From: Nemertoderma westbladi
Lineage: Eukaryota; Animalia; Xenacoelomorpha
NCBI GenBank assembly: GCA_032718475.1
Contig: JAUCBJ010006963.1
Coordinates: forward strand, 1-56,404
DNA length: 56,404 nucleotides
Direction of reading: 5' to 3'
Every line of letters begins with the position of its first letter. Position 1 is the first letter of the stretch. Below are positions 3,221 to 54,831 of this stretch, piece by piece. The notes beneath the pieces were generated by a model. It did not search any database, was not told the origin of the DNA, and saw only the letters and a program-made list of their open reading frames with translations. The translations under genes were made by a program, and so were the position numbers.

Positions 3221-3502
3221 TGTTCGCGCTTTTAGACCTTTGGCAGTTTAACCCGCCAAATTAAGATGTCTTCTAGATATTAAATCGCTTTTTAGCCTGT
3301 GACAAGTATTTGATTCACTACACTAGTCGAAACCAATCTGTGCGCGATCATTCACCCGCTGGATATTCCCGGGAGATTGGGTTCGACGGCTTAATTTTTA
3401 TTGCTATGTAAGCCTAATGTATTATTCGACTGACAGTATTATTTACTTCCGGAGATGAACTTTAAGGGAAAATAACCGGCTAATTACGCAAAAGCTTTTA
3501 CA
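3221..3502 (-). repeat. Internally deleted mini-LTR (282 bp) with both termini intact
   Basis: Starts TGTTCGCGC and ends AAAAGCTTTTACA like the full LTRs but lacks ~920 bp of the middle. Abuts the next LTR exactly (ACA|TGT at 3502/3503). Confidence 0.9.
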
Positions 3503-4706
3503 TGTTCGCGCTTTCAGACCTTTGGCAGTTTAACCCGCCAAATTAGGATGTCTTCTAGATAATAAATCACCTTTTAGTCTATGACAAGTATTTGATTCAC
3601 TACACTAGTCGAAACCAATCTGTGCGCGATCATTCACCCGCTGGATATTCCCGGGAGATTGGGTTCGACGGTTTAATTTTATTGCTATGTAAGCCTAATG
3701 TATTATTCGACTGACAGTATTATATAATCTCTGACAATATTATTCACCTTCGGGAATATTAACAGTTCCTTTAGGACGTGGCGCTTTATCTATATAAACA
3801 GAGTTATGACTTAAACTACTCACAACGATATGGCTCAATTATAATTCACATATATGGCGCATTCTTTAGGAATTGCTTCTTTAACAGACTCACTCATACA
3901 CAATGCTGCACAATACTGCACACTAATCTGCCAATCTTCACTGATTTTAGTCACATATAAAAGGAACACAGACTGACTCATGTAGGGTCTATCAAATAAC
4001 ATTAGATTCACTTCAAACCACTTTAACATAAGTCACAATCGTTATTGGTAACCTTTCTCTCTTACCTTCGGTATATCAAGAATATTGGGTTTTCGGGGTT
4101 ATTTCTCGTTATTCCAATATAATAATTCATCAACCCATATAATGAATAACCGACAACAAATAACAGTATACAGTATCGATTGAGCAGGTAATTTTAGCAG
4201 TTTCAGCAGTTATTAAAAGCCGTGTGTCAGCAGTCAGTGTATTCCCAGATCAGTTAAAGGATATATGTCCTTATAATTAAACCTACTAGTGTAAGACTAA
4301 AAACTGAAAACACGGAGGTGCCAAAAGCCGGTTCTTAGGCTCTAGGCAAAAACATAACACTGAACTACTGAGTTTCTGTATATACCTCCAACACAGAGAC
4401 AACAAACGCTCGGATTGGTCAACCTGAACAACGAGAGAACAAAGAAACAAAGAAACGTCGACGTGGCAATATCAGCTGCTAGCCGTCGTCATGGTAGCGA
4501 CACTGTTTTCAAAGTATCCAGCTATTGCGTCACGAGATTGTGGATTATGTCCTCTAAAGTACAAATACAGTACAAATACATAAGAAATGACTTTTATGTC
4601 CTCTAAAACACCAGTACAGCAAGGACACGGCCTTTTTATGCCTGGCAAACCAACTACAGAGTACTTTAAGGGAAAATAACCGGCTAATTACGCAAAAGCT
4701 TTTACA
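3503..4706 (-). repeat. 3' LTR of the full-length element (1204 bp)
   Basis: Direct repeat of 18238-19440 and 19466-20669. Minus strand reads TGTAAAAGC...GCGCGAACA; AATAAA on minus at ~3678-3683. Confidence 0.95.
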
Positions 4707-4714
4707 CCGCTCCC
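4707..4714 (-). other. Short polypurine tract (GGGAGCGG) abutting the 3' LTR
   Basis: Minus strand ...CTGGGAGCGG|TGTAAAAGC; same arrangement at 20670-20677. Confidence 0.75.
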
Positions 4715-7766: not shown

Positions 7767-10700
7767 TTAAGTTGGGGAGTCCCTAGATGTCGGTTGGATT
7801 AGGGAAGTGGTCGTGGGAAGAGTTTCTTGCCTTCCATAGTTTCCGGAGAGCTCTCTGTCTCTTTCTAGTAAACATAAACGACCCACTGGGCGATTGAGCT
7901 GTTGAGTCTCAAAGACTATCCCTGGTTTCTTAAAGTTCCGCCGCATGACGACGAGCTCTACTGATCGCACCAAACCATCGCTCGAGATATAAGTCTCGAT
8001 GATACGTCCCGTTTGCCATCGCTTACGTGGGAGATCGGGGTCCACAATAAGCACCATGTCTCCAGCGCTGACGTTTTCTTGCTGCGCAAACCACTTAGTT
8101 CGAAGTTGTAGAGTGGGCAGGTAATGTTTCTCGAAATGGTCAGCGAAACGACGGGATAGCAACTGCATAAGTTGCCAGGTTCGACGGCAGTACTCGTCTC
8201 CGTCTGTGATCTCCGATCGTGGGAGCATGGCTACGGGTTTCTTCAGTAGAAAGTGCGCGGGTGTTAGCGCTTCCAGGGAATCAGGATTTGAAGAGACTGG
8301 CATAAGCGGTCTTTCGTTGAGATAGGCGGCGATTTCCTCCATTAACGTCCGCAATAGTTCGTCGGTGAGATAAGCGCGACAAGGCACAATAAAGTGGAAC
8401 GCAGTCTTCACGCTCCTAATCAATCTCTCCCAACTTCCTCCCCACCAAGGGGCGTCGGCGGCGTTGAAGGTCCAGCTAGACGCTGTTATCCTTAGCTGAT
8501 CGTCCACCTGTCTTTTATTCCAGTCCTTTACGTAAGCTTGAATTTCGTTGTTGGCGCCAATGAAGTTCGTTCCCTTATCCGATCTCATCGTGTTACTGGT
8601 TCCGAAGCGAGCGATCTGTCGTCGTAAACTCAACACGAAGCTGTTGGTGGATAGATCGTTTACCATATCGAGATGAATGGCTCTACAAGTCATACAAACG
8701 AAGATGACACACCATCTCTTGACTATAGTCCGGGCACGATATACTTCAATAGGGCCAAATAAATCCACACCGGTATTAGTAAAGGGTGGTTCATAGAAGC
8801 TTACTCTTTCCCTAGGTAATTCTGCCTCTCGCTGCGTTAAAGGCCTACTGAATGCTTTCCTACAGGGTATGCAGTTCCTAAGAACTTGGTTCAGAGCCCT
8901 ACGGGGTTTATAAAAATAGTAGCGAGTTCGAATTTCGCTCAGAACTCGTTCTCTACCAGCATGGTACAGTTTGCTATGAACATCTACAATTATCTTGATT
9001 TGTATGTCAAGATTTCTAATGAGGATGGGAAACTTAGTGTCAAAGGATAATGGGGCGTTGGTAAGCCGGCCTCCAACACGTATTAACCCATCTATCATGG
9101 TACTAGAGAAGCGATCCCTTAAGCGCATCTGTGGATTTCTTAACAACAGGAAATACTTATCGGAATCCTCATAGCATTGTAGGAGTCTCAGCATCTGTTT
9201 GTTGGTTTCATCATGCTCCTGGTAACTGATCTTCTCCTTTAGAAACCTGTCGGATACCTTGTATTGGGGAAGATCTTTAACAACATGGACTCGTGCAGAT
9301 GTTGATGGAGCATCATCACTATGGGTCTTTGTCCCGGAGTAACGATGATGAAAACATCGTTTTAAATAGGTGACGGCTTTACAGAGCCGATTCCAGGAAC
9401 TGTAGTGACGTATCGCTCTCTGCAAGAGAGGTGAGAGTCCTTGCGTGATATCTGGTATTCCAGATTTCCAATCCTTGTCACGGATTTCCAAGACTTCTTT
9501 CGTCGTGGCGGTGGGTTTCTGATCCAAAGCATCATCTCCGGAAGTAAATAATACAGATAGATCAACCGCAGGTTTAAACAACTTCGATTTACTCGCTCGA
9601 GTTTTGGGTTTAACTTTCTCCGCTCCCTTGGCCTGTCTGATCTCTGCTGTTGTGAGATGAGGAGGCCATTCTTCTTCTTCCCTGTAGAGAAAGTCGGGTC
9701 CTCCTAACCATTCGGGAGTATTTACCAATTCCTTTGGAGTCGCTCCTCGGGACGCGATGTCTGCTGGATTAATCGTTCCGGGGCAATGTCTCCATTGGTC
9801 CATCGTCGTGCGACTAAGTATGATGGCTACCCTGTTGGTAACGAAGACGCTGAACTGACAGACTTCATTGGTTATATACTCTAACACGAGTAAAGCGTCG
9901 GTCCAATAGACAGTTTTCTCTAATGGATAGTCAATCTGTTCGGTTACATTCCGGCCGATGGCTGTAGCGTATAGAGCCGCTTTTAACTCCGCTCGAGGAA
10001 CTTTCAACTTGTTGTTGATTAATGCCTTAGAAGTAACCAAGGCGACTTTGATTCCATCCGGAGTTTCCAGTCTTAGGTAGGCTACTATACCGATTCCCAT
10101 ATCGCTGGCGTCTCCAAACACATGGAGTTGATAGGAATACGTAGGGAGAACATGACCAAAATATGAACGGGAAATTATAAAATTCTCGATAGCTGGCAGA
10201 GAATCTTCCCATTTCATCCACTTCTTCAATAATTCTCCCTTAAGTGGATCGTCCCATGAGTGGTTTTCAAGCCACATTTGTTGTACCAAACTACGAGCAA
10301 TCAATATAACTGGGCTAATAAATCCCAATGGATCGAAATAAGTGCTCAGTATACTTAAGCAAATCCGTTTGGTTCGAACTGGATTATCTCGCTGTTTTAG
10401 CTGGAAAAACAGGATATCTCGCTCTGTGTCCCATTTCAAGCCGAGTGTCTTGGTTTCTGGCAGATCATCTTTGCTCAAATCTAGATCTTTCGCCCCTCGA
10501 TCTTCCGCAGGGATCGACTCCAGAAACTCACGGGAGTTGCTGGTGAATTTGGTTAATCGAAATCCACCTCTTTTTAAGCACTCTACCGTTCCCTTAGCGA
10601 CCTCAATGGCTTCCTCAACTGATGGGAGGGACTTCAGATTGTCGTCCATGTATATGTCTCTCTTGATGTTGTCGATCACTTCCTTAGAGAAGGCCTCTCG

Positions 10701-13700
10701 GTTGTCCTCTGCAGTGGTACGCACTACCGAACAGGCGTTGGAAGGGGTTGAGATTATCCCGAAGGCCTGGATGGTCATCCAGTACTCCACCTGTTTCTGG
10801 TTGAGATCTCCTTCGGGCCACCACAGAAATCGTAGACTATCTCGATCCCTATCTAGCACCTTGACTTGTAAGAACATGCCTTCTATATCGGAGGCGAAAG
10901 CAATCGAATATTGTCTCAATCTTAAAAGAATTCCCAACAAAGATTGAAGCAAGTTGGGTCCGGGTAACAATTCAGAGTTAAGGGATTGACCCATGTAAAG
11001 AGCGGAGCCATCAAACACTACTCTCACTTCGTGTGGTTTACCGGGTTTAGGAACGTAATGGTGAGTTAAGTAATACGTTCTTTCAGTCACAGGTGTTTCT
11101 TCCGGTACTCTCTCCGCGTATCCCTTACTAATAAATTTTTCCAGCTGTGTTTGATACATTGCTTTAGCTGAAGAATTAGCCGTAAGGCGTCGATGGAGTT
11201 GCGCGATTCTTTTTTCCGCCAAAGGTCTGTTATTGATGAACTTCGGTTCTCTCTTGCGAAAAGGTAAACCGACTTCGTACCTTCCTTGATCTTTGAGGAA
11301 ACGTGTAGTCGTCTCTTGGATCTGCTTGGCCCTTTCCTCTTCCACCGACAAGGCTTTATCGTAGGAATTGGGCTCTACCGCCTCTTGCGTAAAGAATCGT
11401 ACAGCATGTTCATCTCGAGTCTTGGCATTGCAACGCTCAATGACGTCATTTAACTCGTCGTTATAAGCTTCTCGTTCAGATGGATAGAGAAGTTGACATA
11501 AGTTAACTTGGTTTTGCCAAGCCTCATTTTCCTTAAGGAGATCGATGGTATTCTCCTCATCAAAAAGCTGGTGAACGTCGTCGTTATCTGAGGAGTATGG
11601 AATTCCCTCAGTTGAATCGTCTCCCTCACTAGCATCATCTTCCCATTCACTCACCTGGCAGACTCTCTCTTGCGGTAGTCTTTCTCTGAGTGTTCTACGG
11701 GAAGGGCCAGTAAAGTACCAACCTACTCTAGTTCTTACCGCATATGTCTGTAGGGGCTGCGGTTGAGCAGGCCGTTTCTCTAATGTCTCCAGCGCCTCAT
11801 GCGCGTTTTGGCCGATGAGTATTTGTACTCCAGGATAATCAGTCTGGAATCGAGGTATGTTAAGATGTTGGATGCTCTCATCCTCGTCCCAATTATAAAG
11901 GTCTGCTTGAGTAGTAGCGAAGTTCTTTATAGCCACCATTTTCACTGACCTTATGCTATGTTCTCCTAGTTCGTCCTGGGGGGTGGACAACGCTCCTACA
12001 TAATAATCCGCTGTGATTGTAGATTTCCAAACTTGCATTATGCCAGACATGTTGAGCTTAGTTTGGAACTTGAGTTGTCCAGCAAATATATCTTCGGCTA
12101 GCTCTTTGTCGATGAATGTTCCTGTACTACCGGAGTCAAGGAGGGCGTTCACTACATAACTCCTCTTAGGTCCGTGAACCCTCACTTGCACCACAGGAAA
12201 CTCTCGGATCCCTACATTGGAAGATGGCTCTTTCCAAGATGGTTGTCGCTCAGAAGTAGTTAGAGTGAAGTCGTTGTCTGTATCCTTTTCATAGGTGAGC
12301 GCTCGATACACTGCGGTATTTATCATGTAACAGGATTCGTTTTCGTCGGAGAACTCGTCTGTGTAGAATCCTTCCATCTCAGATTGATCAGTGTCGTTCA
12401 CATCACTGAATTGGACATGTAGCTCGGAATCACTTACCTGATTCGGACTATTTCGATCGAATTCAGCGTGCAACAAGATATGATGTTTCGCACCACACTT
12501 TGCACACCTTATGTCAGAGAAACAGGTTCGCCGTTGGTGTCCTTGTCTGAGGCAATTATAACATAACCGCTTATCCCACATGACTTCGCGTCTCTCCGTT
12601 AATGATTTCTTTAGAAATTCATCACACCTATTCAAATGGTGGATCCCGTCACACAGAGCACATTTTGGTTTGATGTTACTTACCTTATTTTGAGTCACAT
12701 TGTGTACACTTGCCCTTTCTTCGGGCTTTCTCACCGGAATTCTCTTGGGAGACGTAGGAGGAGTTTTTCTTACCTGTTCTCTCCTGTCATTTGATCGAGA
12801 CTTGAATTTACTCACCTGATCTTTAGGAATTTTATTTACGTAATAAGATCTCTCAGTGTCTTTCCCGCTATCTTCTCCTTGAGAAGTCTGGCTTTCGCCG
12901 TCGTCTGTATAACACACTGGTGTTACCTTTCTCCTAGAGACGGGTTTTTCACTTACCTTGCTTTCCGGTGTCTTCTCCCTAGACAGTTTCAGGAGCTGTA
13001 ATTTCACTTCTCCATCTAGGAATGACATGAGATCAGCCATGGTAGGGTCTCGTCGTTGTTGTTCCATCATATATAACACTTTCTTATCCCAGCGTGTACC
13101 TACTCCACCTTTCGGTAAAGTAGAAGCCAGTGCTCTAATAACCATAGTGTTCTGATACTCATGAGACTTACCTAGCCAATCTAATTGTCTGCAGATCTCC
13201 TGGATCTCATCGGAAAACTCGATAATTCCGCTACTAATAAACTTTCGGGGCGCTACTAATTTTGCATACAAGTACCCAGCGATATTATTCCTATTACCAT
13301 ACCTGATGTTTAATGTATCCCAAACTTGTCTTAATCCGTCTGGATGTCCAATAAACTTTAACGCCATTAACTTGGGAGATCCTTCCAAGCACTCGATGAG
13401 GTATCTAAGTTTTTCTCCATTAGATAGTACAGAGTTCTGTATGTTATCTTTGTAATATTCATTAAAAGGTAACCATTTCATCTCATCTCCATTGAACTTG
13501 ACGATCTCTCCCACCTTTACCGCTTGCCGGGCTTCGGTTCTAGCCATTTGACGCGTAAAACTTTCTTGGGCCATCGTGTTATTTAATATCGAGTTATCGG
13601 TATATAAATTTCTCGGATTATGATCAGGTCTATAGGGAATGTCATTATCAACAGGTCTATAATTACCCTTAATAGGGTTCACTATAGGAGTTTCTACTTC

Positions 13701-15854
13701 GCTAGCAGTATATATGCGTGTAGGCTCCACACCTTGCGCATGCGATACTTCAGACCTAACAGGTTGACACATTGTTACAGAGGGTGGTGGTATACCCTTT
13801 TGGGTATTTACTAATTTATCGCGTTCGAGCGCGATACTTTGCTGCACTTCTTGCAACTCTAGCCTACTTTCCCTTACTGTGCCCTTGAATTGCTGGACAG
13901 TCTCCTGCATCTGCCCGAGCAGGATATCCATCCCCCGCCGTCTCTCGTCCACCCATTCGACCGCCGAAGCGGGAGTCGCCAACGTTGTAGCGAGCGGACG
14001 AGGGACAACGGGCGACAAATCAGGAATATTTCGCTCGGGGTCCAGGACCTGAACTGTCTCCTGGGCAGTTCTACGGGGCACAGGTAGCTTAGTGCTATGC
14101 AGAGGGAATTTAGAGGTAACTTCAGGGAGCACAGGTGTGTCTATCACCGAAGGGGTGATTTCAAGAACAGGCCTAATTATTTCAGGCTCATCTACTATAG
14201 TAGGGAGTCTTTCTATTTTAATTATTTGGTCTGTGGGCTCTGTACTACCTAAGTTGGTGTTATTTAGTTGCCTTCGAACAGCTGGAGGCAAATCAGGCAA
14301 TTTCTGACGGTGGAATGTTCTTTTACGTCTACTTAGACGAGATCTATTTCCCTTGCCTTCAGTATCGGTGGTATCGCCTTCCTCAGATGATGTATATCCC
14401 TGTCTTTTGGGAGTAGATCGATTCATCATCTGCATATTACTAGCTGTTAACTGTTTATTTATGCAGTCTTGATTCTCCTGAATGTTTTCCAATTCTAATT
14501 GGGTGGTTTCTTCAGTCGCTCTCCGTTCGGCTTCTGCCACTGCCTCCCGCTTGCGTCCTTCCGCTTCGGCCGCTGCCTTTGCTGCTGCTACTGCCGCTTT
14601 TGCCTCTGCTGCTGCCACTGCCGCTGCCGCTTTTGTTTCTGCTTCTGCAGCTGCCACTGCTGCTGCTACTGCCGCTGCTTTTCTGTCTTCTATACGTTTT
14701 TTCTTTACTTGTTCTTCCTGGACTCGTGTGATGCGGAGTTGTTCATCAAATTTAGCCTGATTCGCAGCCCTCATTTCCACATCGATGGCATCCAACACAA
14801 GCTTGGTTCCTTCACTATTAGGGCTAAGTCCCTCTAACCTTCTCCTCAACTCGTCATCACCTAAAAAACGTTGATAGTCTGACAGATAGATGTCAATGGC
14901 ATCCCTCTTATGCGGTTTCTCTGCCGTCGCTTCACTTTCCACTTGGGAAAAAGTAGCGTCTGTTGATTCTCCATGGGTTGATCGCTCCTCCAGCTGAGCT
15001 TTCCACTGAGCTGTTCCTTGAACCTGGAGATTCACCCTTTGAAACCAAGTCTTTACGGCGACTTGCAACGACGTGTCTTGTCTTCGTTTAGAAGCCTCCT
15101 CAAAGGCCGATAATATTAGCCTGATTCGTAGAATTCTTTCTCTCACTTGATAAAGCAGTTGTCCCTGCTCTTGAGGTCCTTGTGGTTGTTGAAACAGTTG
15201 TTCTTTTAATCGCTCTATAGAGCTGAAGAATCCCTGTGTGTATCCGGCTGCGGACCTCTTCCACACAGCTGGATCGATGGTTTCCTTGGCTACTCCCATC
15301 CGGTGTATGTCTTCCCAGGCAGCTTCTGATAAATCAAACGGGAGTCCGGGTCCGGGGAAGTTCCATTGCGACTCGACAATAGACTTCAGTTCTTCACTCG
15401 TGTATCCCGCATAACTATCTCTAGTTGACCGTTGACTTCTCGCCCAATCGATCTGGTGTTCTTCCACCGCGATCAATAACCTAGTGAGTACGGCTGCAGG
15501 AAGGATGAGAAGGGGATCCGTATAAACCACATCCGTCATCTCTGCTCCGCGCTCGGGTGTCAGCTCTACAGTATCCTCACTACTGGAGCTGCTGGGCCGC
15601 TGAGGAATAAGTTCTTGACTAGCGGGTTGTTGCTGTTCCGCTGCTTCTTGGTCCCGCTTGACCTGAGCTCGGGTGCCTATGATAGACCTACGATGTTGGA
15701 CTAGCCTAGGTTCTGTTATTACTACTGGAGGGATGATCTTCCTCACAGTGGGAGGTGAACTGAACTTACGACCAGACGGTTGTACGTCTCTATCTGAGTC
15801 GCAGATAGTTACATCTAATAAACTGTCTGATAGGTTCTGCTTAGTATCAGACAT
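7767..15854 (-). CDS. gag-pol: BEL/Pao Gag-Pol polyprotein, 2695 aa
   Basis: BEL-type Gag core (KFNGDEMKW...EKLRYL); three zinc knuckles (CALCDGIHHLNRC, CYNCLRQGHQRRTC, CAKCGAKHHILLH); protease ALLDSGS; RT (LPGPNL, DIEGMFLQV, YMDD); RNase H (VFGDAS, PRAEL, WTDA, NPADIASRG); integrase HHCC plus DDE (GVDLFGP, SDKGTNF, WERLIRSVK); C-terminal RWQTGRI domain. Confidence 0.97.
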   Translation of the reverse strand: MSDTKQNLSDSLLDVTICDSDRDVQPSGRKFSSPPTVRKIIPPVVITEPRLVQHRRSIIGTRAQVKRDQEAAEQQQPASQELIPQRPSSSSSEDTVELTPERGAEMTDVVYTDPLLILPAAVLTRLLIAVEEHQIDWARSQRSTRDSYAGYTSEELKSIVESQWNFPGPGLPFDLSEAAWEDIHRMGVAKETIDPAVWKRSAAGYTQGFFSSIERLKEQLFQQPQGPQEQGQLLYQVRERILRIRLILSAFEEASKRRQDTSLQVAVKTWFQRVNLQVQGTAQWKAQLEERSTHGESTDATFSQVESEATAEKPHKRDAIDIYLSDYQRFLGDDELRRRLEGLSPNSEGTKLVLDAIDVEMRAANQAKFDEQLRITRVQEEQVKKKRIEDRKAAAVAAAVAAAEAETKAAAAVAAAEAKAAVAAAKAAAEAEGRKREAVAEAERRATEETTQLELENIQENQDCINKQLTASNMQMMNRSTPKRQGYTSSEEGDTTDTEGKGNRSRLSRRKRTFHRQKLPDLPPAVRRQLNNTNLGSTEPTDQIIKIERLPTIVDEPEIIRPVLEITPSVIDTPVLPEVTSKFPLHSTKLPVPRRTAQETVQVLDPERNIPDLSPVVPRPLATTLATPASAVEWVDERRRGMDILLGQMQETVQQFKGTVRESRLELQEVQQSIALERDKLVNTQKGIPPPSVTMCQPVRSEVSHAQGVEPTRIYTASEVETPIVNPIKGNYRPVDNDIPYRPDHNPRNLYTDNSILNNTMAQESFTRQMARTEARQAVKVGEIVKFNGDEMKWLPFNEYYKDNIQNSVLSNGEKLRYLIECLEGSPKLMALKFIGHPDGLRQVWDTLNIRYGNRNNIAGYLYAKLVAPRKFISSGIIEFSDEIQEICRQLDWLGKSHEYQNTMVIRALASTLPKGGVGTRWDKKVLYMMEQQRRDPTMADLMSFLDGEVKLQLLKLSREKTPESKVSEKPVSRRKVTPVCYTDDGESQTSQGEDSGKDTERSYYVNKIPKDQVSKFKSRSNDRREQVRKTPPTSPKRIPVRKPEERASVHNVTQNKVSNIKPKCALCDGIHHLNRCDEFLKKSLTERREVMWDKRLCYNCLRQGHQRRTCFSDIRCAKCGAKHHILLHAEFDRNSPNQVSDSELHVQFSDVNDTDQSEMEGFYTDEFSDENESCYMINTAVYRALTYEKDTDNDFTLTTSERQPSWKEPSSNVGIREFPVVQVRVHGPKRSYVVNALLDSGSTGTFIDKELAEDIFAGQLKFQTKLNMSGIMQVWKSTITADYYVGALSTPQDELGEHSIRSVKMVAIKNFATTQADLYNWDEDESIQHLNIPRFQTDYPGVQILIGQNAHEALETLEKRPAQPQPLQTYAVRTRVGWYFTGPSRRTLRERLPQERVCQVSEWEDDASEGDDSTEGIPYSSDNDDVHQLFDEENTIDLLKENEAWQNQVNLCQLLYPSEREAYNDELNDVIERCNAKTRDEHAVRFFTQEAVEPNSYDKALSVEEERAKQIQETTTRFLKDQGRYEVGLPFRKREPKFINNRPLAEKRIAQLHRRLTANSSAKAMYQTQLEKFISKGYAERVPEETPVTERTYYLTHHYVPKPGKPHEVRVVFDGSALYMGQSLNSELLPGPNLLQSLLGILLRLRQYSIAFASDIEGMFLQVKVLDRDRDSLRFLWWPEGDLNQKQVEYWMTIQAFGIISTPSNACSVVRTTAEDNREAFSKEVIDNIKRDIYMDDNLKSLPSVEEAIEVAKGTVECLKRGGFRLTKFTSNSREFLESIPAEDRGAKDLDLSKDDLPETKTLGLKWDTERDILFFQLKQRDNPVRTKRICLSILSTYFDPLGFISPVILIARSLVQQMWLENHSWDDPLKGELLKKWMKWEDSLPAIENFIISRSYFGHVLPTYSYQLHVFGDASDMGIGIVAYLRLETPDGIKVALVTSKALINNKLKVPRAELKAALYATAIGRNVTEQIDYPLEKTVYWTDALLVLEYITNEVCQFSVFVTNRVAIILSRTTMDQWRHCPGTINPADIASRGATPKELVNTPEWLGGPDFLYREEEEWPPHLTTAEIRQAKGAEKVKPKTRASKSKLFKPAVDLSVLFTSGDDALDQKPTATTKEVLEIRDKDWKSGIPDITQGLSPLLQRAIRHYSSWNRLCKAVTYLKRCFHHRYSGTKTHSDDAPSTSARVHVVKDLPQYKVSDRFLKEKISYQEHDETNKQMLRLLQCYEDSDKYFLLLRNPQMRLRDRFSSTMIDGLIRVGGRLTNAPLSFDTKFPILIRNLDIQIKIIVDVHSKLYHAGRERVLSEIRTRYYFYKPRRALNQVLRNCIPCRKAFSRPLTQREAELPRERVSFYEPPFTNTGVDLFGPIEVYRARTIVKRWCVIFVCMTCRAIHLDMVNDLSTNSFVLSLRRQIARFGTSNTMRSDKGTNFIGANNEIQAYVKDWNKRQVDDQLRITASSWTFNAADAPWWGGSWERLIRSVKTAFHFIVPCRAYLTDELLRTLMEEIAAYLNERPLMPVSSNPDSLEALTPAHFLLKKPVAMLPRSEITDGDEYCRRTWQLMQLLSRRFADHFEKHYLPTLQLRTKWFAQQENVSAGDMVLIVDPDLPRKRWQTGRIIETYISSDGLVRSVELVVMRRNFKKPGIVFETQQLNRPVGRLCLLERDRELSGNYGRQETLPTTTSLIQPTSRDSPT

Positions 15855-15940
15855 GTCTATGTATACCGTTGAATGTCTACTGCTGTATTACAATCTGAGC
15901 AAGTCTAGTAACTCAGTATTAACTGATAGCCTAGTAATTA

Positions 15941-16360
15941 ATTACCGGTACTGCTACTCAGTGTAGCGTGATATATATAATATATTAGAATACCGGTATG
16001 CTTATAGTATATATAACTATTATTACAGACTAGGTTTATCACAGAATACCGGTATAATTTTAGCACAAATATATATAAATATATAATAGGCCTATCGGGA
16101 ATACCGGTATACAGATTACAGTTTTGTAGTATATAATTATAATTCTGGAATAGAATTAATTACAAGTACCGGTATAATTTCAGCCTAAATTTATAGAAAT
16201 AAAGATAATAGGCCTATCGTAAATACCGGTATGCAGTTTACACTTATAGTGTATATATATAAGTATAATTACAAACTGGAATTAATTACAGAATACCGGT
16301 ATGATTTCAACCTAAAATTTATAGAAATAAATATAATAAGCCTATTGTAAATACCGGTAT
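15941..16360. repeat. Array of eight palindromic TACCGGTA motifs spaced ~47-70 bp upstream of the gag start
   Basis: Motif counted directly; the outer copy (2233-2517) has six. Confidence 0.75.
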
Positions 16361-17344
16361 ATCAATTAGTTTAAATAACTGAATTTCTGAATTTTAAGGG
16401 TTACTAAGTTACTTTAACTTACTTTATTGCCGTTAGTTAAGCAGTAGTCCAACTGATATCGAGACCTAATGGTTGTATGGCAGGCCTACTATTTATAAAT
16501 CGTTAGATTTGATTTATAATATATATATACCCGTTTTAATGGGTTTTGTCAATGTTTGAAATAAATGTTATTATTTCTGGGGGGTAATCACTACACAAAG
16601 CGGTGCGCTTTCAATGAAGTGTTACTTATAAGACACTAAAACAAATAATTCTAATTTACCTAAGTTACTTAATACTACAAATTACGTACAATTCGGGTGA
16701 GATTACAATCTCTAAATAAACACAAAAATTTACAAAAAACACAAAATACGAATTTTTAGGGTAATTTTACAAGAAGTCTACTAACCAGCCTAACAAAGGG
16801 TTAGAAACTGGTTATTACAACGGACAGGGTACTACGGTATTTGAAATAATGAGTAGTAGTAAATACACTGCGTTGTCCAGATAGGAAAATACCACCGCCT
16901 GACGACCTATAGCCGTATCGCTATAGGTTCTACGTTATGTATAACGGAGTGTTCCTACCTAGAAGTTAATAGAGCTAATCGAACGTGCCTATTAACCACT
17001 TTACAACACAAATATAATGTCTACACTAATTACTTCGGAAAGTACTGTACACTAAACCCTAAATTAGGTACGAGTACTTGTACAACATATAATCTGTAGT
17101 TAAATATACTTGAGCAGCTAAAAGAACCACGGCATCTGCTGGAGTGACCGATGCACAAAATCACCAGTCTTTACCTACGCCAAGCAGCCCGTGTAGTACC
17201 GGGGTTAATTTAACTATAGCGGTATGTATAACAAACACAATTACTGTAGGAACAAACTTGGGGAATGAATGTTGCGAATAATCGCATAAACTCTGAATAA
17301 TAAATATTACGCTACGCGTACAAACTACTCAAACAAAATGCAGA

Positions 17345-17872
17345 CCGAACACTGACAGACTACCATCAAGCTTAAACAAACTACGGTATATGCAGACTCC
17401 GAAATAATTAGGTAGTATGCGTTCTAACCCAGTAGTACGACTTATTCTTTAATTGGGGGTTTACCTTACAGCATTCGCTGCCCCTACTTCCTAACCGTTC
17501 TTTATCGGACAAGTGATCTACACACGCTGCAATCCGCTCAGGCCTAATAACAGCCAGACAACTATCCAGCCTACAAATTATCTAAATAAATATTATACGC
17601 TACCCGTACAGACTTACACAAACAAAGTACAGACTAAACGATGGCAGACTACTCTCAAGCCTAAATAAACTACAGGACATGCAGACTCCGAAATGATTAG
17701 GGAGTATGCGTTCTAACCCAGTAGTACGACTTATTCTTTAGTTGGGGGTTTACCTTACAGCATTCGCTGCCCCTACTTCCTAACCGTACTTAATCGGACA
17801 GGTGATCTACACACACTGCAATCCGTTCGGACCTAACAGCAATCAGACAACAGCTCAGCCTACAAATCGTCT
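17345..17872. repeat. ~290-bp tandem duplication in the 5' leader
   Basis: CAGACTCCGAAAT...GTGATCTACACAC block at ~17392 and ~17682; same duplication at ~27050-27570. Confidence 0.85.
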
Positions 17873-18044
17873 GTACAATCTGATCAGGTTTACACGCCTT
17901 CTGTTCAATACTAGCCTACAAACAAATAAAACTGACAGAAATAAGTAAGCTCCAAAAGAAACAAGGGGTGTACAGTCCCTAATCTCTTAAACAGCCTACT
18001 GGTATACAACAATCAAATCGAATAATACTAATGTACTTATACTG

Positions 18045-18192
18045 GAAGTACCGGTTAGGACAGTTGGGCCTACGGACCTACAGAAGTACCGGTTCTGGCA
18101 GTTGGACCTACGGGCCTACAGCAGTACCGGTTCTGGCAGTTGGGCCTACTGACCTACAGATGTACCGTTCAGGTTTACCGGTTGACCGGTAC
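18045..18192. repeat. ~38-bp tandem repeats (GTACCGGTT...GCAGTTGGRCCTAC...CCTACAG) close to the PBS position
   Basis: Three full units plus a partial one; also at ~27748-27894. Confidence 0.8.
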
Positions 18193-18225
18193 TTTCAACT
18201 TTATTGCTTACTGCAATAAAGAAGC

Positions 18226-18237
18226 TATATCCTTTAA
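18226..18237 (-). other. Non-canonical primer-binding site TTAAAGGATATA, complementary to a motif in the element's own LTR
   Basis: Follows the 5' LTR directly on the sense strand, does not start with TGG, and is the reverse complement of the sense LTR sequence at 18989-19000. Confidence 0.7.
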
Positions 18238-19440
18238 TGTTCGCGCTTTCAGACCTTTGGCAGTTTAACCCGCCAAATTAGGATGTCTTCTAGATAATAA
18301 ATCACCTTTTAGTCTATGACAAGTATTTGATTCACTACACTAGTCGAAACCAATCTGTGCGCGATCATTCACCCGCTGGATATTCCCGGGAGATTGGGTT
18401 CGACGGTTTAATTTTATTGCTATGTAAGCCTAATGTATTATTCGACTGACAGTATTATATAATCTCTGACAATATTATTCACCTTCGGGAATATTAACAG
18501 TTCCTTTAGGACGTGGCGCTTTATCTATATAAACAGAGTTATGACTTAAACTACTCACAACGATATGGCTCAATTATAATTCACATATATGGCGCATTCT
18601 TTAGGAATTGCTTCTTTAACAGACTCACTCATACACAATGCTGCACAATACTGCACACTAATCTGCCAATCTTCACTGATTTTAGTCACATATAAAAGGA
18701 ACACAGACTGACTCATGTAGGGTCTATCAAATAACATTAGATTCACTTCAAACCACTTTAACATAAGTCTCAATCGTTATTGGTAACCTTTCTCTCTTAC
18801 CTTCGGTATATCAAGAATATTGGGTTTTCGTGGTTATTTCTCGTTATTCCAATATAATAATTCATCAACCCATATAATGAATAACCGACAACAAATAACA
18901 GTATACAGTATCGATTGAGCAGGTAATTTTAGCAGTTTCAGCAGTTATTAAAAGCCGTGTGTCAGCAGTCAGTGTATTCCCAGATCAGTTAAAGGATATA
19001 TGTCCTTATAATTAAACCTACTAGTGTAAGACTAAAAACTGAAAACACGGAGGTGCCAAAAGCCGGTTCTTAGGCTCTAGGCAAAAACATAACACTGAAC
19101 TACTGAGTTTCTGTATATACCTCCAACACAGAGACAACAAACGCTCGGATTGGTCAACCTGAACAACGAGAGAACAAAGAAACAAAGAAACGTCGACGTG
19201 GCAATATCAGCTGCTAGCCGTCGTCATGGTAGCGACACTGTTTTCAAAGTATCCAGCTATTGCGTCACGAGATTGTGGATTATGTCCTCTAAAGTACAAA
19301 TACAGTACAAATACATAAGAAATGACTTTTATGTCCTCTAAAACACCAGTACAGCAAGGACACGGCCTTTTTATGCCTGGCAAACCAACTACAGAGTACT
19401 TTAAGGGAAAATAACCGGCTAATTACGCAAAAGCTTTTAC
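18238..19440 (-). repeat. 5' LTR of the full-length element (one terminal base lost at the junction)
   Basis: Direct repeat of 3503-4706 with about two visible substitutions (18769, 18831). Confidence 0.95.
18989..19002 (-). other. Candidate self-primer CATATATCCTTTAA inside the LTR
   Basis: Complementary to the PBS position; present in all four full LTRs (4254, 18989, 20217, 28713). Confidence 0.6.
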
Positions 19441-19465
19441 TTTATCCTTATTTAATATCCTTTAA

Positions 19466-20669
19466 TGTTCGCGCTTTCAGACCTTTGGCAGTTTAACCCG
19501 CCAAATTAGGATGTCTTCTAGATAATAAATCACCTTTTAGTCTATGACAAGTATTTGATTCACTACACTAGTCGAAACCAATCTGTGCGCGATCATTCAC
19601 CCGCTGGATATTCCCGGGAGATTGGGTTCGACGGTTTAATTTTATTGCTATGTAAGCCTAATGTATTATTCGACTGACAGTATTATATAATCTCTGACAA
19701 TATTATTCACCTTCGGGAATATTAACAGTTCCTTTAGGACGTGGCGCTTTATCTATATAAACAGAGTTATGACTTAAACTACTCACAACGATATGGCTCA
19801 ATTATAATTCACATATATGGCGCATTCTTTAGGAATTGCTTCTTTAACAGACTCACTCATACACAATGCTGCACAATACTGCACACTAATCTGCCAATCT
19901 TCACTGATTTTAGTCACATATAAAAGGAACACAGACTGACTCATGTAGGGTCTATCAAATAACATTAGATTCACTTCAAACCACTTTAACATAAGTCACA
20001 ATCGTTATTGGTAACCTTTCTCTCTTACCTTCGGTATATCAAGAATATTGGGTTTTCGGGGTTATTTCTCGTTATTCCAATATAATAATTAATCAACCCA
20101 TATAATGAATAACCGACAACAAATAACAGTATACAGTATCGATTGAGCAGGTAATTTTAGCAGTTTCAGCAGTTATTAAAAGCCGTGTGTCAGCAGTCAG
20201 TGTATTCCCAGATCAGTTAAAGGATATATGTCCTTATAATTAAACCTACTAGTGTAAGACTAAAAACTGAAAACACGGAGGTGCCAAAAGCCGGTTCTTA
20301 GGCTCTGGGCAAAAACATAACACTGAACTACTGAGTTTCTGTATATACCTCCAACACAGAGACAACAAACGCTCGGATTGGTCAACCTGAACAACGAGAG
20401 AACAAAGAAACAAAGAAACGTCGACGTGGCAATATCAGCTGCTAGCCGTCGTCATGGTAGCGACACTGTTTTCAAAGTATCCAGCTATTGCATCACGAGA
20501 TTGTGGATTATGTCCTCTAAAGTACAAATACAGTACAAATACATAAGAAATGACTTTTATGTCCTCTAAAACACCAGTACAGCAAGGACACGGCCTTTTT
20601 ATGCCTGGCAAACCAACTACAGAGTACTTTAAGGGAAAATAACCGGCTAATTACGCAAAAGCTTTTACA
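19466..20669 (-). repeat. 3' LTR of the truncated copy (1204 bp)
   Basis: TGT...ACA termini, PPT adjacent at 20670. Confidence 0.95.
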
Positions 20670-27926: not shown

Positions 27927-27940
27927 CATATATCCTTTAA
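27927..27940 (-). other. Non-canonical PBS of the outer copy, TTAAAGGATATATG (14/14 complementary to LTR motif 28713-28726)
   Basis: Direct sequence comparison. Confidence 0.7.
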
Positions 27941-29165
27941 TGTTCGCGCTTTCAGACCTTTGGCAGTTTAACCCGCCAAATTAAGATGTCTTCTAGATAT
28001 TAAATCGCTTTTTAGCCTATGACAAGTATTTGATTCACTACACTAGTCGAAACCAATCTGTGCGCGATCATTCACCCGCTGGATATTCCCGGGAGATTGG
28101 GTTCGACGGTTTAATTTTTATTGCTATGTAAGCCTAATGTATTATTCGACTGACAGTATTATATAATCTCTGACAATATTATTCACCTTCGGGAATATTA
28201 ACAGTTCCTTTAGGACGTGGCGCTTTATTTATATAAACAGAGTTATGACTTAAACTACTCACAACGATATGGCTTAATTATAATTCACATATATGGCGCA
28301 TTCTTTAGGAATTGCTTCTTTAACAGACTCACTCATACACAATGCTGCACAATACTGCACACTAATCTGCCAATCTTCACTGATTTTAGTCACATATAAA
28401 AGGAACACAGACTGACTCATGTAGGGTCTATCAAATAACATTAGATTCACTTCAAACCACTTTAACATAAGTCACAATCGTTATTGGTAACCTTTCTCTC
28501 TTACCTTCGGTATATCAAGAATATTGGGTTTTCGGGGTTATTTCTCGTTATTCCAATATAATAATTCATCAACAAATATAATGAATAACCGACAACAAAT
28601 AGCAGTATACAGTATCGATTGAGCAGGTAATTTTAGCAGTTTCAGCAGTTATTAAAAGCCGTGTGTCAGCAGTGATTACGAAATTGCAGTGATTCCGGTG
28701 ATATTCACAGAGTTAAAGGATATATGTCCTTATAATTAAACCTACTAGTGTTGAGCTAAAAAGCAGAAAGCACAAAACACTACAAAGCCGTTCTTTCGTG
28801 GCTTTGAAAAACTCGTGACTACTGCTCTATACGAGGATACCAACTACCCTTATTCCACGAAGCTCCCGTTCAACACAGAGAAAGAGCAGTGAGATAGGAA
28901 AATTTCAGTTCAGTAGCTCTGTGATAGGTCAAAATCAAGGCTAACTCAAATTCTATTGGGAGATACAAAAACAAGGCTATGACGCAACCTTCTCTAGGCT
29001 GGTTGGCCGATTAAACAGAGCCCAGATACCTGCGTACAGCAAATCAGCCAATAAGCTGGTAGCTTGCACTATTTTAACTATAGATCCCCTTTAGAGTATT
29101 CTAGCGACCGGGGGGGAACTGGCCAACAAGGCAAACGAATCAGTTATCCCACAAAAGCTTTTACA
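27941..29165 (-). repeat. Variant 5' LTR (1225 bp) with divergent U3-side half
   Basis: 27941-28672 is near-identical to the other LTRs; 28673-29151 is diverged; terminal CAAAAGCTTTTACA is shared. Confidence 0.9.
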
Positions 29166-31290: not shown

Positions 31291-31925
31291 AAGGAATGCC
31301 TGTTCACCACCATCATGGGGGTGATCTTACACAGTAAACCCTTCCACTCTGTTTACTAAAGGAATGCCTGTTCACCACCATGGGTGATCTTCCACAGTAA
31401 ATCCGTCAACCGTTTCCTAAAGGAATGACAGTTCACCACCATGGATAATCTTCCACAGTAAACCCTTACACTCTGTTTCATAAAGGAATGCCTTTTCCCC
31501 ACCACGGGTGATCTTCCACAGTAAACATTTCCAATCTGTTTCCCAAAGGAATGCCTGTTCACCACCATGGGTGATCTTCCACAGTAAACTGTTCCACTCT
31601 GTTTCCCAAAGGAATGCCTGTTCACCACCATGGGTGATCTTCTTCAGTAAACTCTTCCACTCTGTTTCCCAAAGGAATGCCTGTTCACCACCATGGGTGA
31701 TCTTCCACAGTAAACTCTTCCACTCTGTTTCCCAAAGGAATGCCTGTTCACCACCACGGGTGATCTTCTTCAGTAAACTCTTCCACTCTGTTTCCCAAAG
31801 GAATGCCTTTTCATCACCATGGGTGATCTTCTTCAGTAAACTCTTCCACTCTGTTTCCCAAAGGAATGCCTGTTCACCACCATGGGTAATCTTCTACAGT
31901 AAACTCCTCCCACTCTGTTTCCAAA
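31291..31925. repeat. 63-bp minisatellite, about 10 copies
   Basis: AAAGGAATGCCTGTTCACCACCATGGGTGATCTTCCACAGTAAAC... at period 63 (31545, 31608, 31671); a solitary related copy at ~32093-32165. Confidence 0.9.
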
Positions 31926-36607: not shown

Positions 36608-38789
36608 GGTGGTACCTACGGTGCGCACTACAACGGCAGTACAGCAATACGGTGTACCGTGCCAATGCAGCAATGACTGAATGATTACCGGTAGCGGTAA
36701 CTATCTAAACTATTATATTATTATTACCGGTGCCGGTACTGGGCTAATTCTGTAATTAGGCCTAAACTATAATCACCGCAAGGGTTGCCGGGGTTAATTA
36801 GATTACATGATATGGCATGTCTGCAGTGTATGGTACCGGCTGACCAGTATTGCAGTATTGACTGATTGCAAGATTATCGATTCAGGGATTGAGTACAGCC
36901 TGACAGTACCGGTACACATGGTACATGCAGACAACCCCAATGTATTGCAAAATTTGTCAGAAATCAGCTGATTTATCCTACAGTAATAATAATTTAACGC
37001 ATTTTAAATTTGGATAAATAAATTTATTATAACTGCAATAACAGTTACACTGATGCTGCACGAAGACCCCACGCAAATTCTACTTGGAAAATTTTCAAAC
37101 TTTTGCCAAACAACATGTGTACCAAGTTTGGATAGATTTCATCAAGGATTGGCCGAGTTATTAACGTTTAAAATAAAATACTGAAAAAAAACGCGACAGA
37201 ACGACAGAACGACAGGTTGATTAATGGTACCCCTACGCTAAGGCTCACTCACTTCGTGGCTCGCCCCAACATGTGAACAGGTACACTGTAATTGTTGACA
37301 GGTAAAACACTAGAAAGCCAGCAAGCTGGCTGGAAGGAGCCCGGGGGAAAAATCCTAGCCAAGACTATTACAAAGAACTATGTTAGTCAGCAGTAAGTAA
37401 ACTAAAATTGTCTAAACTGCAAGGCGTGAGGCTAGCTGACTTTGTGGCTCGCCCCACATAATAAAAAATGCAACTTAGCTACCACTAACAAAAATATAAT
37501 ATGAAGCAAATAATTTCATTATCAAGAACGTTTACAAGATATAAGATGCGATTACCGAATATTTATAAAAAATGCCCATGATGCACAACCAGATAAATAA
37601 CAACGAATAGAGCCAAATAACAAATTTAGTTTCCTTCTATAGGTATTACCCCGTCGTCAAGCGGAATATCTCTTCCCAGTGAATTCTATGTGAATATGTA
37701 ATATAGGTACTCCTTAGGCGGTAGGCCAGAGCGGGCTCCTTAAATACATGCAACTACTGTATTATAGTGTAGGTCAACTATAAAACATTTTGCAATCCAC
37801 AGTGAGTATCGACTGCAATAGGATACAACACACTGCTTTGTGTAACTAAAATTCATTCTCCTGATCCACCCCCTAACATAGCAGAGTGAGTAACCTTATT
37901 GTAGATATACTCTTAGGAAGCACTGGGAGAGCAATCAGCTTATGGGGTAATACATTAGAAACCAACAGCTTATGTGTGAGTAAACATTGCCTTTAAGAAT
38001 TTAATGAGGATTTCAAATCTGAAAACGGCTTAGCGATATCTCTTTTAGTTCTGGAGTTATAGCCGTTTGTCCGTTCATATGTCTGTCATTCTGTCCAACA
38101 ATATATAAGAAACCATATGACGTACTCATATTTTCGTTTTGGCAGTTGTTATTGGCGTTGACTTCATTTCCGAAGTTAGTTTTGATGTTTGGTGGAATCA
38201 AGTCCATCTATCTGTCTTCCTGCCTGGTTGTCTGTTCGTGTGTCTGTCTGTCTGTTTGTGTGTCAGTCTGTCCATCAATTTATAATAAAATACACCACCT
38301 AGCTGAAATTTTCGATATGGGGGTTTTCCTAGTCAGTGATTCCATTTCCAATGTCAGTTGTAATGTTTTGTGAAATGTAGTTGGTCTGTCTGTAGGTTTG
38401 ATAGGTTGGGCAGACAACCGACAGAAAGATATGCAGACTCCCAAGATTCCATCGAATATGAAAATTTCCATCGAAACATGACCTTCTAAACAAGTTATTG
38501 ATGTTTAGAAGGCCATGCATCGAAATGAAACAGCCAAGTTTTCATGTTTGATAGAATCTAATCTGTCTGTTGGTCTGTCCTTTTGTCTATTTGTAAGCCG
38601 TAAGTCTGTATGTCCCCATAGGTGTCCATAAACATGACTGTCTTTTTAGGCCATGGCTCTACAGTACTAGGAACTACTTTATCAATAGCGGGAATTTTAA
38701 ACTATATTATTGTTACATTCTGTAGAAAGTAGTGTGTTGCCTAAATACTACCCCACTTTTTTACCGGTATTTTACTGGCCTACTCTGAA

Positions 38790-40691
38790 ATGGGTAAATG
38801 CACTAGACTAAACGTTAAAAGGTGGCAATTAGCTGCCACAGCAGCAAGAATAAATCGGTGGTCTGTCCCACAGTCTCCACTGTCACCACAGACTAAATCT
38901 AAAAAAAAACTAATAACAAGTCTATTGCCTCGTAAATTACTAAAATGTGATCCATTGGAAAATTCCGGATTTCGTATTTTCGATATTACAAATGTTACTG
39001 CAGCAATTCAAACTGCACATTCTGCTGGTTGCCTTGGCAAGGTATCTGTGAGAGAGCAGGTATGCCAAGGTATAAGTTCGTCACTCAATATAGTTTGTGA
39101 CGCCTGTGATATGTCACTTTACCTCGGCAACTCTTCGAAACCGGAAGTTGTAACAAGAAAACCGTACTCACAAGAACATACTCCTCTAAATAGACGGATG
39201 GTTTACGCGGCGTGTGAGGTAGGCGGTGGGCTAGAAACACTCAAGCTGATCGCTGAGCTCCTAGCAATGCCGTGCACAATGAGTAAAACAGCATTCGAGA
39301 ATAACCAGGGTGAAATATTCAAAGCGCATAAAGTACTTGTAGAGAAGGAACTCGTTAGTGCACGTCATGAACTTTCCAAAGGAAATGAGAAAGTAAATAT
39401 AGAAGCATGTTATGATGGTACATGGCATACACGTGGATTCGGTTCTTCCTTTGGAGCAGGATTTCTTCTAAGTTGGGAAACAGGCAAAGTGATAGATTAT
39501 GGGACTAGGTCGAAGTTGTGTAACCAATGTACATTTTGTCCATACGACAAAAAAAGTGAAAAGTATGCAGTGTGGATGAGCAACAACCACGAATCGGAAT
39601 GCCAAGGAAGTTTTTCCGGCTCTAGCGGAAGTATGGAGACCAGCATTGCTGTGGAAATTTTTAATAATCCCAAAACCCGCCTTACAGATCCAGACCATTC
39701 GCTGAAGATAAGTAATTTAATTTCGGATAGAGATTCAAGTGTTTACAAGAATGTTTGGGATGCATATGGGGCATGTCATGGATGTCGGAAATACGAAAAG
39801 TTGACCATGGAAGAGAAAGAGGAATTTGATCGTTCTGATAAGGGGTTAGAATATTGGAACAAACACCATAGCAATGAAATTATTTGTGACAGAGTCTGGA
39901 AAACTGATTGTATAAACCATATCCAGAAAAGCTTGGGTAGTCAGCTTCGGAAATTGAAAACTGATACTAAAGGAAAACTGAGTGATGGGAAATATATAGG
40001 TGGTTCCTCACATAGACTCACTAATGAAGCTATAGTAAAACTCACTGGTTACTTTGGAAAAGCTGTTCATCGGTCTATAAATGATACCAAAGGGAAGTCG
40101 GAAGTGGAAAGGATCCAAAATATGAAATCCGCTATTTTGGCTAGTTTCAGACATTGTATCCGAAGTGGTTCTAATAACCAACGTCATTTCTATTGCCCAA
40201 TTGGTCCAAAATCATTCTGTACATACAAGCGAACAAATAAACCTGAGCCAGAAAAACCCCATCATTTAGATCCAATTTTCCTTCCCCTATTGCTACCAAT
40301 CTACCGCCGATATATTACGGACAAACAGATTCGGCAATATTTACCAGGTTATACTCAAAATATGTCAGAAGGTCTGCACAGTTTGGTTTGGAAGCGGGCA
40401 CCGAAGATTGGATTCTTTGGAGCGCAACGAATTGAAATGGCCGCAATGAGCACTATATTATATTATAACATAGGATCGGAGGCTAGGTCACTTGTTTTAA
40501 AACAACTGTTCTCAGTGGAACCGAGTCGGCCTACACTGCAACTGCAAGTGAGGAAGGATGTTAAACGAGTGCGGCATAGCGTGGAGAAGTTCAAGAGCAA
40601 GATAAAGCATCGGAATGCGAAAATTGCAGCAGCTAAAAAACGAGATGGTGAAGATATTGTTGAGCCAGACTATCTTCCTGGAGGACATTAA
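38790..40691 (+). CDS. Intact DDE transposase, Kolobok/Mutator-like, 633 aa
   Basis: Motifs YDGTWHTRG, TGKVIDY..SKLCNQC, GSSGSME, SDRDSS, KTDCINH (CxxH), HFYCPIGPKSFC, TQNMSEGLHSLVWKRAPK; basic C-terminus; ATG start, no stops. Confidence 0.85.
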   Translation: MGKCTRLNVKRWQLAATAARINRWSVPQSPLSPQTKSKKKLITSLLPRKLLKCDPLENSGFRIFDITNVTAAIQTAHSAGCLGKVSVREQVCQGISSSLNIVCDACDMSLYLGNSSKPEVVTRKPYSQEHTPLNRRMVYAACEVGGGLETLKLIAELLAMPCTMSKTAFENNQGEIFKAHKVLVEKELVSARHELSKGNEKVNIEACYDGTWHTRGFGSSFGAGFLLSWETGKVIDYGTRSKLCNQCTFCPYDKKSEKYAVWMSNNHESECQGSFSGSSGSMETSIAVEIFNNPKTRLTDPDHSLKISNLISDRDSSVYKNVWDAYGACHGCRKYEKLTMEEKEEFDRSDKGLEYWNKHHSNEIICDRVWKTDCINHIQKSLGSQLRKLKTDTKGKLSDGKYIGGSSHRLTNEAIVKLTGYFGKAVHRSINDTKGKSEVERIQNMKSAILASFRHCIRSGSNNQRHFYCPIGPKSFCTYKRTNKPEPEKPHHLDPIFLPLLLPIYRRYITDKQIRQYLPGYTQNMSEGLHSLVWKRAPKIGFFGAQRIEMAAMSTILYYNIGSEARSLVLKQLFSVEPSRPTLQLQVRKDVKRVRHSVEKFKSKIKHRNAKIAAAKKRDGEDIVEPDYLPGGH

Positions 40692-40847
40692 TATTTTATT
40701 TAGTAATACTAATATCAATAGTAATAAATTATACTAAATAAATAACTAATAAATAAAGTACCTAATAAAATTGAAAATTTTGCTGACAGTTTTTATTTTA
40801 TGATTAACAATGAGACAAACTATGCGCTACCAAACAAACATGTAAAT

Positions 40848-43985: not shown

Positions 43986-44449
43986 GTAATAACTTCATAA
44001 TAACATAATAATAATAAAATAATAAAAATAATAAATTCATAATAACACCTTCAAGTTTGGCACATGAACCAGCTATAATGGAAAACACAGGAGCCACTAA
44101 GTATGACCAGAAAGAATAGCTGTGTCCGTCATAGATATCTACCCCCCTTGATATATGATATATGTTACATAAACAACGTTGAAACAAAGGAAATTCCATA
44201 TCATAAATAATTTTACATGAGTGGCAAAAAAGTAACATATTTAGTGAAATGCCTTCGAAGTGTACAAGGATTGGTATTGCTTCGATGGAGCACAGAGGTT
44301 CTCAAACTATGGATTAACCTATATAAGAACTTAGTAAGAACCAAAAACCCACACGCCCTGATGTGTTTGGATTCAGAATACACCATCTGAACTGCCAATA
44401 GAAACTGTTTTGTCTTTTCCTAACACAGGAGGCTGTCCTAACCTGGGCT

Positions 44450-44975: not shown

Positions 44976-45215
44976 TTTAGGCCTACTTCCATCCCCTGCT
45001 GCACTACATCCTATGTCCTATATTGAATTAAATATATTTTGTAGTGTTTTGGTTATTAAAACTCATGACACTCTGGAGCGGAATTAGCTTGAATGGAAAG
45101 TTCAGCTCCACTTTCGAATCTTGTCTCAGGGGATAAATGTGTTAGTGCTCCACTCTCATTCGGTAAACTTTCTGTTAACAACGGCTAAAATAGTGAAGCA
45201 ATATATAATCTATAA

Positions 45216-54786: not shown

Positions 54787-54831
54787 GTCTGGTCTGGAAA
54801 GTCAACCATGTGCTGCTTAGCAACAATAAGT

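Follow-up and report, generated by a model that had tools for sequence, protein, structure and literature searches.

A BEL/Pao retrotransposon of Nemertoderma westbladi with a putative primer for reverse transcription in its own LTR

Organization of the element and its surroundings

The window, i.e., the whole 56,404-nt stretch of Nemertoderma westbladi DNA analyzed here, contains a BEL/Pao LTR retrotransposon of 15.9 kb on the minus strand, which is unusually large for BEL/Pao. The copy is young, since its two LTRs (19440–18238 and 4706–3503) differ by only two substitutions and the absence of the first base (1201 of 1204 positions identical). Gag-pol is encoded by a single intact ORF with the Pfam domains PF03564, PF05380, PF17921, and PF18701, in which three Cys-His knuckles, a DSG protease, a YMDD reverse transcriptase (RT), an RNase H, and a DDE integrase follow one another in BEL order. 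About 800 residues of gag-pol precede the first Pfam match, and no env was seen in the full-length element. The leader (15854–18237) is 2.4 kb long and contains short repeats. The Gag-PR-RT-RH-IN order with BEL-type Pfam domains, the TG...CA LTR pair, and the purine tract before the 3' LTR are as found in BEL/Pao members. The 18-nt primer-binding site (PBS) for tRNA-Arg or tRNA-Gly listed as a trait by the ICTV is not present, as no TGG follows the LTR; membership is unaffected by this, because the PBS trait is descriptive and the family is defined by its proteins. The features are collected in Table 1.

Table 1. Features of the full-length element and neighboring copies (window coordinates)
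Feature	Position	Strand	Remarks
3' LTR, full-length copy	3503–4706	−	1,204 nt; joined CA/TG to the start of another LTR
Purine-rich tract immediately before the 3' LTR	4707–4714	−	
Single gag-pol ORF	7767–15887	−	2,706 aa, stop to stop
Predicted 9-bp hairpin just past the PBS	18199–18221	−	fold prediction
PBS, without TGG, adjoining the LTR end	18226–18237	−	
5' LTR, full-length copy	18238–19440	−	1,203 nt, without the first T
Predicted 8-bp hairpin near the LTR 3' end (U5)	18256–18277	−	fold prediction
AATAAA, candidate polyadenylation signal	18413–18418	−	
Possible GT-AG intron	18724–18800	−	77 nt; by eye; weak pyrimidine tract; downstream of the primer, not splitting it
Conserved island containing the primer	18987–19028	−	41/42 identical between the two LTR types
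Candidate self-primer	18989–19002	−	19000–18989 pairs 12/12 with the PBS (18237–18226); duplex −11.6 kcal/mol
TATAAGG	19004–19010	−	TATA box or 5' extension of the primer duplex
LTR-LTR junction	19441–19465	−	3' LTR, then 10–11 nt of PBS (19465–19455), filler, next LTR
3' LTR of the partial upstream copy	19466–20669	−	
PBS, outer copy	27927–27940	−	14/14 (27940–27927 vs. 28726–28713)
5' LTR, outer copy	27941–29165	−	different U3
Candidate self-primer, outer copy	28713–28726	−	

The full-length copy is part of a concatemer (3187–26738) that consists of a partial copy, the full copy, and LTR pieces and lies inside the 5' leader of an older copy. The concatemer is flanked by an 11-nt duplication (26738–26728 and 3197–3187) plus filler bases, and its appearance suggests that end joining, rather than integrase, captured the cDNA. 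Its LTR-LTR joints are of two kinds, an exact CA/TG joint (3502–3503) and a PBS tail with filler (19441–19465), which may be a record of two states of the unintegrated cDNA end. The PBS tail fits a cDNA end copied from a primer and supports the site as a working PBS, but it cannot separate a tRNA primer from a self-primer. For comparison, passages of PMC11042837 describe a PBS tail kept in about half of Tf1 cDNA. Elsewhere, the window carries a Mutator-like transposase ORF (38745–40691), an element with 186-nt terminal inverted repeats (43664–46400), a hAT fragment (54178–54864), a 1.4-kb foldback (54828–56252), and two tandem arrays (31291–31925, period ~63 nt; 40844–41745, period ~154 nt).

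Complementarity between the PBS and the LTR

On the minus strand, the 5' LTR ends in GCGCGAACA at 18238 and is directly followed by TTAAAGGATATA (18237–18226). The original prediction held that this site lacks the TGG of a tRNA-primed element and is instead complementary to a motif inside the LTR, and the sequence agrees: there is no TGG within the first bases, and the exact complement is present in both the full-length copy (12/12) and the outer copy (14/14). The pairing was also predicted to extend past a bulge; indeed, RNAduplex adds 7 bp beyond a 2-nt bulge in the outer copy. The motif begins ~440 nt into the 1,203-nt LTR; ~750 nt separate it from the PBS, and no LTR intron interrupts it. 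Within the first 3.6 kb of the element, no complement of at least 8 nt is found for the junction that removal of the possible intron at 18800–18724 would create. Formation of the primer 3' end by 5' splice-site cleavage is ruled out, since no GT follows the motif. Among Markov-simulated LTRs, a match of at least 12 nt anchored at PBS base 1 was found in 1, 6, and 20 per 20,000 for orders 1, 2, and 3, respectively, i.e., a chance of about 1e-3 or lower. Only 2 of 13,502 start positions in the internal region reach 12 nt against the real LTR, and one of them is the PBS itself. Within the window, ARAGORN detected no tRNA, and Rfam gave no match at E up to 10 over 17800–19500; neither result tests for a host primer.

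The primer motif lies in an island shared by the two LTR types of the window and ends 2 nt before the island does. Upstream of the island, the two types are identical at 243 of 459 positions (53%; shuffled baseline 48%). Downstream, indels come right after the island, followed by 714 of 729 identical positions over the remainder. A T-rich AG motif at 19038–19032 is also common to both. The unrelated-looking U3 regions (19029–19440 and 28753–29165) sit on near-identical R-U5 regions, which suggests promoter swapping with a crossover 20–40 nt after the primer.

The stretch is present in six of the seven public sequencing runs listed, of which four (X1, X3, X4, and X5) were compared as contigs. 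None of the six is listed as an RNA run, though X4 may be one. The family is highly repeated, with 15,537 X1 contigs over 1,581 bases (~1.6 kb). In all four runs, the summed contig depth of the bin 18983–19035, a quantity that is not a copy number, exceeds that of the next downstream bin (X1: 481,390 vs. 33,625). Loose contig ends are found at 19038 (X3, X4, and X5) and at 18986–18987 (X4 and X5). These data show that the island is common to variants that differ on both its sides. The sole substitution listed at ≥1% over 18180–18275 falls inside the PBS, at 18233, where the variant makes up 26% of the summed depth in X1 (37 contigs) and 28% in X3 (25 contigs). Self-priming predicts a matching change at 18993 for this variant, which could count against the model. 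Loose ends at 18221–18223 (X1, X3, and X4) reveal a sister subfamily whose LTR end deviates slightly and whose PBS, likewise lacking TGG, is altogether another one but runs into the same leader sequence. A viral contig collection searched by protein, alignment, and DNA pattern gave no matches.

Own-LTR complements among BEL relatives

The element has no close relative: the best of 276 homologues share 42–44% identity with it over RT-RNase H. PF05380 is present in all 120 listed homologues, and those with a named source belong to echinoderms, a mussel, tunicates, a ribbon worm, barnacles, fish, and Schistosoma. The original prediction had named covariation between PBS and LTR motif across related BEL families as a check. 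The relatives used here comprise the best 80 of 503 metagenome loci and 24 genome loci (104 in total), and the 17 loci in which both LTR 3' ends were readable form the test set. For L003, L043, and L099, the end was placed by eye, a few bases off the BLAST end, and L006 was left out of the defined-end set, as its apparent LTR end is a contig overlap. The score is the length of the longest exact complement that starts 0–5 nt past the LTR end and is formed either without interruption or over a GT-AG intron of 45–400 nt.

All 13 non-TGG loci of the test set carry a complement of 10–15 nt in their own LTR, whereas the four TGG-type loci score 4–5. In four of the 13 the complement is contiguous; the other nine pair only across a GT-AG intron (contiguous-only score 5–8), with the donors GTAAGT (seven loci), GTAAGC, and GTGAGT and intron lengths of 77–338 nt. 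When the PBS of one element was set against the LTR of another, none of 334 cross pairs reached 11 nt and one reached 10; these pairs leave out three core-sharing loci and the two window copies. The 13 loci have 11 distinct PBS cores, as L010, L040, and L053 have one in common, and even here position 12 is G-C in L040 and A-T in L053. Three of the 13, all the non-TGG loci that came from a later, separate scan, passed the unchanged test with 11, 11, and 14 nt. The covariation check thus came out in favor of the pairing: PBS and LTR match within each non-TGG element of the test set, in different letters, and the match is absent from TGG types and from cross pairs. Of the 80 metagenome loci, 57 had usable DNA upstream and were scanned blind: 22 reach at least 11 nt when real splice sites are used, and controls with shifted splice sites gave 3, 5, 5, 6, and 2 loci; some of the 22 matches are chance, and several loci are near duplicates.

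The position of the pairing differs from that in the window. In all 13 relatives it begins 1–5 nt after the LTR end; when the search for spliced primers was fixed to PBS base 1, it gave no match, and complements appeared once a spacer of 0–5 nt was allowed. The relatives' primer ends in AC in 10 of 13 loci, and in 10 of 13 the next base is C, while that of the window element ends in AA, followed by C. One locus (L039:228–615) has a clear layout: a TATA-like motif, an LTR-leader helix of 14 bp, a primer of 11 nt split by an intron, and AATAAA. The PBS core of L010, L040, and L053 (and of L020 and L059) contains the palindrome TTCGAA, which resembles a tRNA T-loop, yet pairs with a spliced LTR junction. 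Records labelled as bacterial also contain BEL/Pao elements with LTR pairs (L093 and L103, both in the Wolbachia chromosome NZ_OU909470.1, and L083, L085, L099, and L101), probably as host DNA in bins or as a host-integrated Wolbachia copy.

In a tree of 46 rows, from which L011 and L074 were left out, the window protein pairs with L099, an element of the spliced type (SH-aLRT 99), although both branches are long and attraction is possible. This pair sits within a 33-row set in which all labelled loci are of the self-complement type. A 9-row group contains the seven TGG-type loci together with a Lineus protein and L039, itself of the self-complement type with an end not fixed by homology. The placement of the window element is soft, since other trees put it elsewhere. 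Contiguous and spliced types are interleaved in the tree, which would fit repeated intron loss.

Putative mechanism, alternatives, and relation to known systems

Judged from sequence comparison, the primer of the window element is very probably a self-derived RNA rather than a tRNA, and it is likely to be the element's own LTR motif, acting in cis from the 5' LTR copy of the RNA. We infer that transcription starts upstream of the motif and that the RNA's 5' LTR copy would bend back across ~750 nt to pair with the PBS. The RNA would then be cut just past the paired stretch, the predicted cutter being the element's RNase H by analogy with Tf1, and minus-strand DNA would be begun from the RNA 3' end thus created. 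Most relatives would have a primer only once the LTR intron has been removed. With such split primers, cleavage would fall just within exon 2 and strong-stop DNA would never cross the junction; as it would end downstream of the intron, the intron could be inherited via the unspliced 3' LTR copy. Splicing of the 3' LTR copy would yield intron-less lineages such as the window element, which may represent a form whose primer is ready-made and whose loop, at ~750 nt, is unusually long.

The relatives modify several details of the original prediction. Zero spacing between LTR and PBS is true of the sequence here, but none of the 13 relatives pairs from the first base, and their spacer of 1–5 nt implies that the working primer end of the window element could lie 2–3 nt further in. 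Extension from the last base of the LTR would accordingly require that both terminal A-U pairs truly form; the relatives suggest that a spacer of 2–4 nt is usual. That every relative (13/13) has an unpaired spacer, whereas the window element pairs from base 1, counts against the model. The proposed analogy with Tf1 survives as to a self-derived primer, which is supported by the 13 relatives, but Tf1-specific features are partly contradicted by them: their primer is often internal instead of forming the first 11 nt, is mostly intron-split, and is separated from the LTR end by the spacer.

Where transcription starts bears on the source of the primer. If the TATAAGG at 19010, whose one-base-longer variant TATAAAGG is present in all four runs, is a TATA box, it would put the start ~8 nt downstream of the motif and leave the motif in U3. 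The predicted motif-PBS pairing of the full-length copy is 0.83–0.91 for RNA starts at 19009–19000 and at most 0.05 for starts at 19013 or further upstream, and that of the outer copy is 0.96–0.97 from 28755 downward and 0 from 28828; long-range fold predictions of this kind are probably weak evidence either way. A motif lying in U3, as the TATAA(A)GG 8–10 nt upstream of it would imply, would suit a primer made of the same LTR motif but supplied by the 3' LTR copy or, in trans, by a separate short LTR transcript that substitutes for a tRNA. The LTR's own AATAAA and the great abundance of the family make LTR-only transcripts plausible, and the covariation evidence all fits such a source equally. 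In the relatives, however, a TATA-like motif is found upstream of the primer in L003, L016, L040, L043, and L083 (and by eye in L039), the nearest 31–165 nt away, and all AATAAA/ATTAAA signals detected are downstream of the primer. Together, these signals place the relatives' primer in R. Moreover, cutting the 3' copy would presumably destroy the strand-transfer acceptor on that molecule. We consider a primer from the 3' copy or in trans unlikely.

The LTR-leader helix might also be a structural switch for packaging, dimerization, or translation, with something else nearby priming. In line with this, long-range helices flank primer sites elsewhere, as in L039, whose second, 14-bp LTR-leader helix lies ~45 nt past its PBS, and predicted hairpins lie on both sides of the window PBS. 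Yet the helix begins 1–5 nt past the LTR end in 13 of 13 relatives, where a primer must sit, it is missing in the four elements with a TGG site, and no alternative primer site is visible, which makes a purely structural role quite improbable. Priming by a host tRNA fragment or another small RNA ending in the motif, with the LTR copy incidental, has a precedent in the tRNA halves described as primers of some copia lineages in passages of PMC6317226. However, eleven different PBS cores in 13 relatives are each matched by the respective relative's own LTR, nine of the loci only across splice sites, and host RNAs would not track such varied cores; a host primer is thus very improbable. A chance match is strongly disfavored, for although the motif is AT-rich and the order-3 simulations give 20 matches in 20,000, the conserved island, the 14/14 match in the second copy, and the 13 of 13 relatives stand against it.

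A primer from the element's own RNA, which remains the preferred reading, has counterparts in other superfamilies. [quoted passage not shown] Tf1/Tf2/Tj1 and the Tf1/sushi elements, including plant Tcn1, resemble the window element in the lack of a tRNA site, a PBS by the 5' LTR, and an own-LTR complement of ~11 nt; the PBS studied here adjoins the LTR end and is complementary to its own LTR over 12–14 nt, where Tf1-type self-priming calls for at least 10–11 nt. They differ in belonging to Ty3/gypsy, whereas the protein of the window element is BEL/Pao and not a Ty3/gypsy chromovirus polyprotein, and the loop here is ~750 nt; the relatives of the window element further differ by their mostly intron-split primers and 1–5 nt spacers. 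In its priming, the window element probably resembles Tf1, with its own RNA serving as primer.

Self-priming is also predicted for Tcn1 and the TAR copia lineage in passages of PMC6317226, PMC4600332, and PMC5341516. For the plant copia elements TAR/Houba/Osr, the relevant part of PMC6317226 bases this prediction on an LTR complement of at least 10 bp beginning 0–5 bp past the 5' LTR, an arrangement also found in the window element and its 13 relatives (4 contiguous, 9 after splicing); these elements differ in being Ty1/copia of plants, and that part of the source mentions no intron-split primer. Fungal GalEa copia elements, as described in a section of PMC5445492, likewise lack a tRNA PBS at the expected place but have a local palindromic hairpin for which no LTR complement was found, whereas the complement of the window element lies inside the LTR. 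The ICTV profile of Belpaoviridae (PMC8742986) agrees with the window element in domain content and order, the single gag-pol ORF, and an LTR at the 1.2-kb upper end; the element differs by its non-TGG site and by its 15.9 kb, against a genome of 4.2–10 kb and the tRNA-Arg or tRNA-Gly PBS of 18 nt in the profile.

PMC6934838 names only fungal gypsy elements as self-primed. Term searches found no mention of PBS, primer, or tRNA in the searched text of the main BEL/Pao survey (PMC3118150) and only PCR and sequencing primers in that of the Sinbad paper (PMC554778), and the relevant sections of PMC3601003, PMC13524379, and PMC5445492 do not report BEL/Pao self-priming. Neither BEL/Pao self-priming nor splice-built primers were found in the searchable portion of the full-text literature.

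There is about an even chance that a more general model holds, in which a large, mostly aquatic BEL/Pao branch dropped tRNA priming and uses as primer an internal piece of LTR RNA, usually built by host splicing: the 5' LTR copy would gain its primer competence through splicing, whereas the 3' copy, left unspliced, would hand on the intron, and reverse transcription would be licensed by the spliceosome; lineages that lost the intron would keep a ready-made primer, and, unlike in Tf1, a capped 5' end would not be required as primer. The intron-split primers of the relatives would link splicing directly to the start of reverse transcription, a connection that we did not find in print. A primer from the own LTR would account for the failure of PBS finders with many BEL elements and, if true, contradicts the ICTV statement of host-tRNA priming for BEL/Pao. 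Self-priming would then be present in all three superfamilies of LTR retrotransposons, and a widespread animal branch would neither depend on the supply of tRNA nor be subject to control through tRNA fragments.
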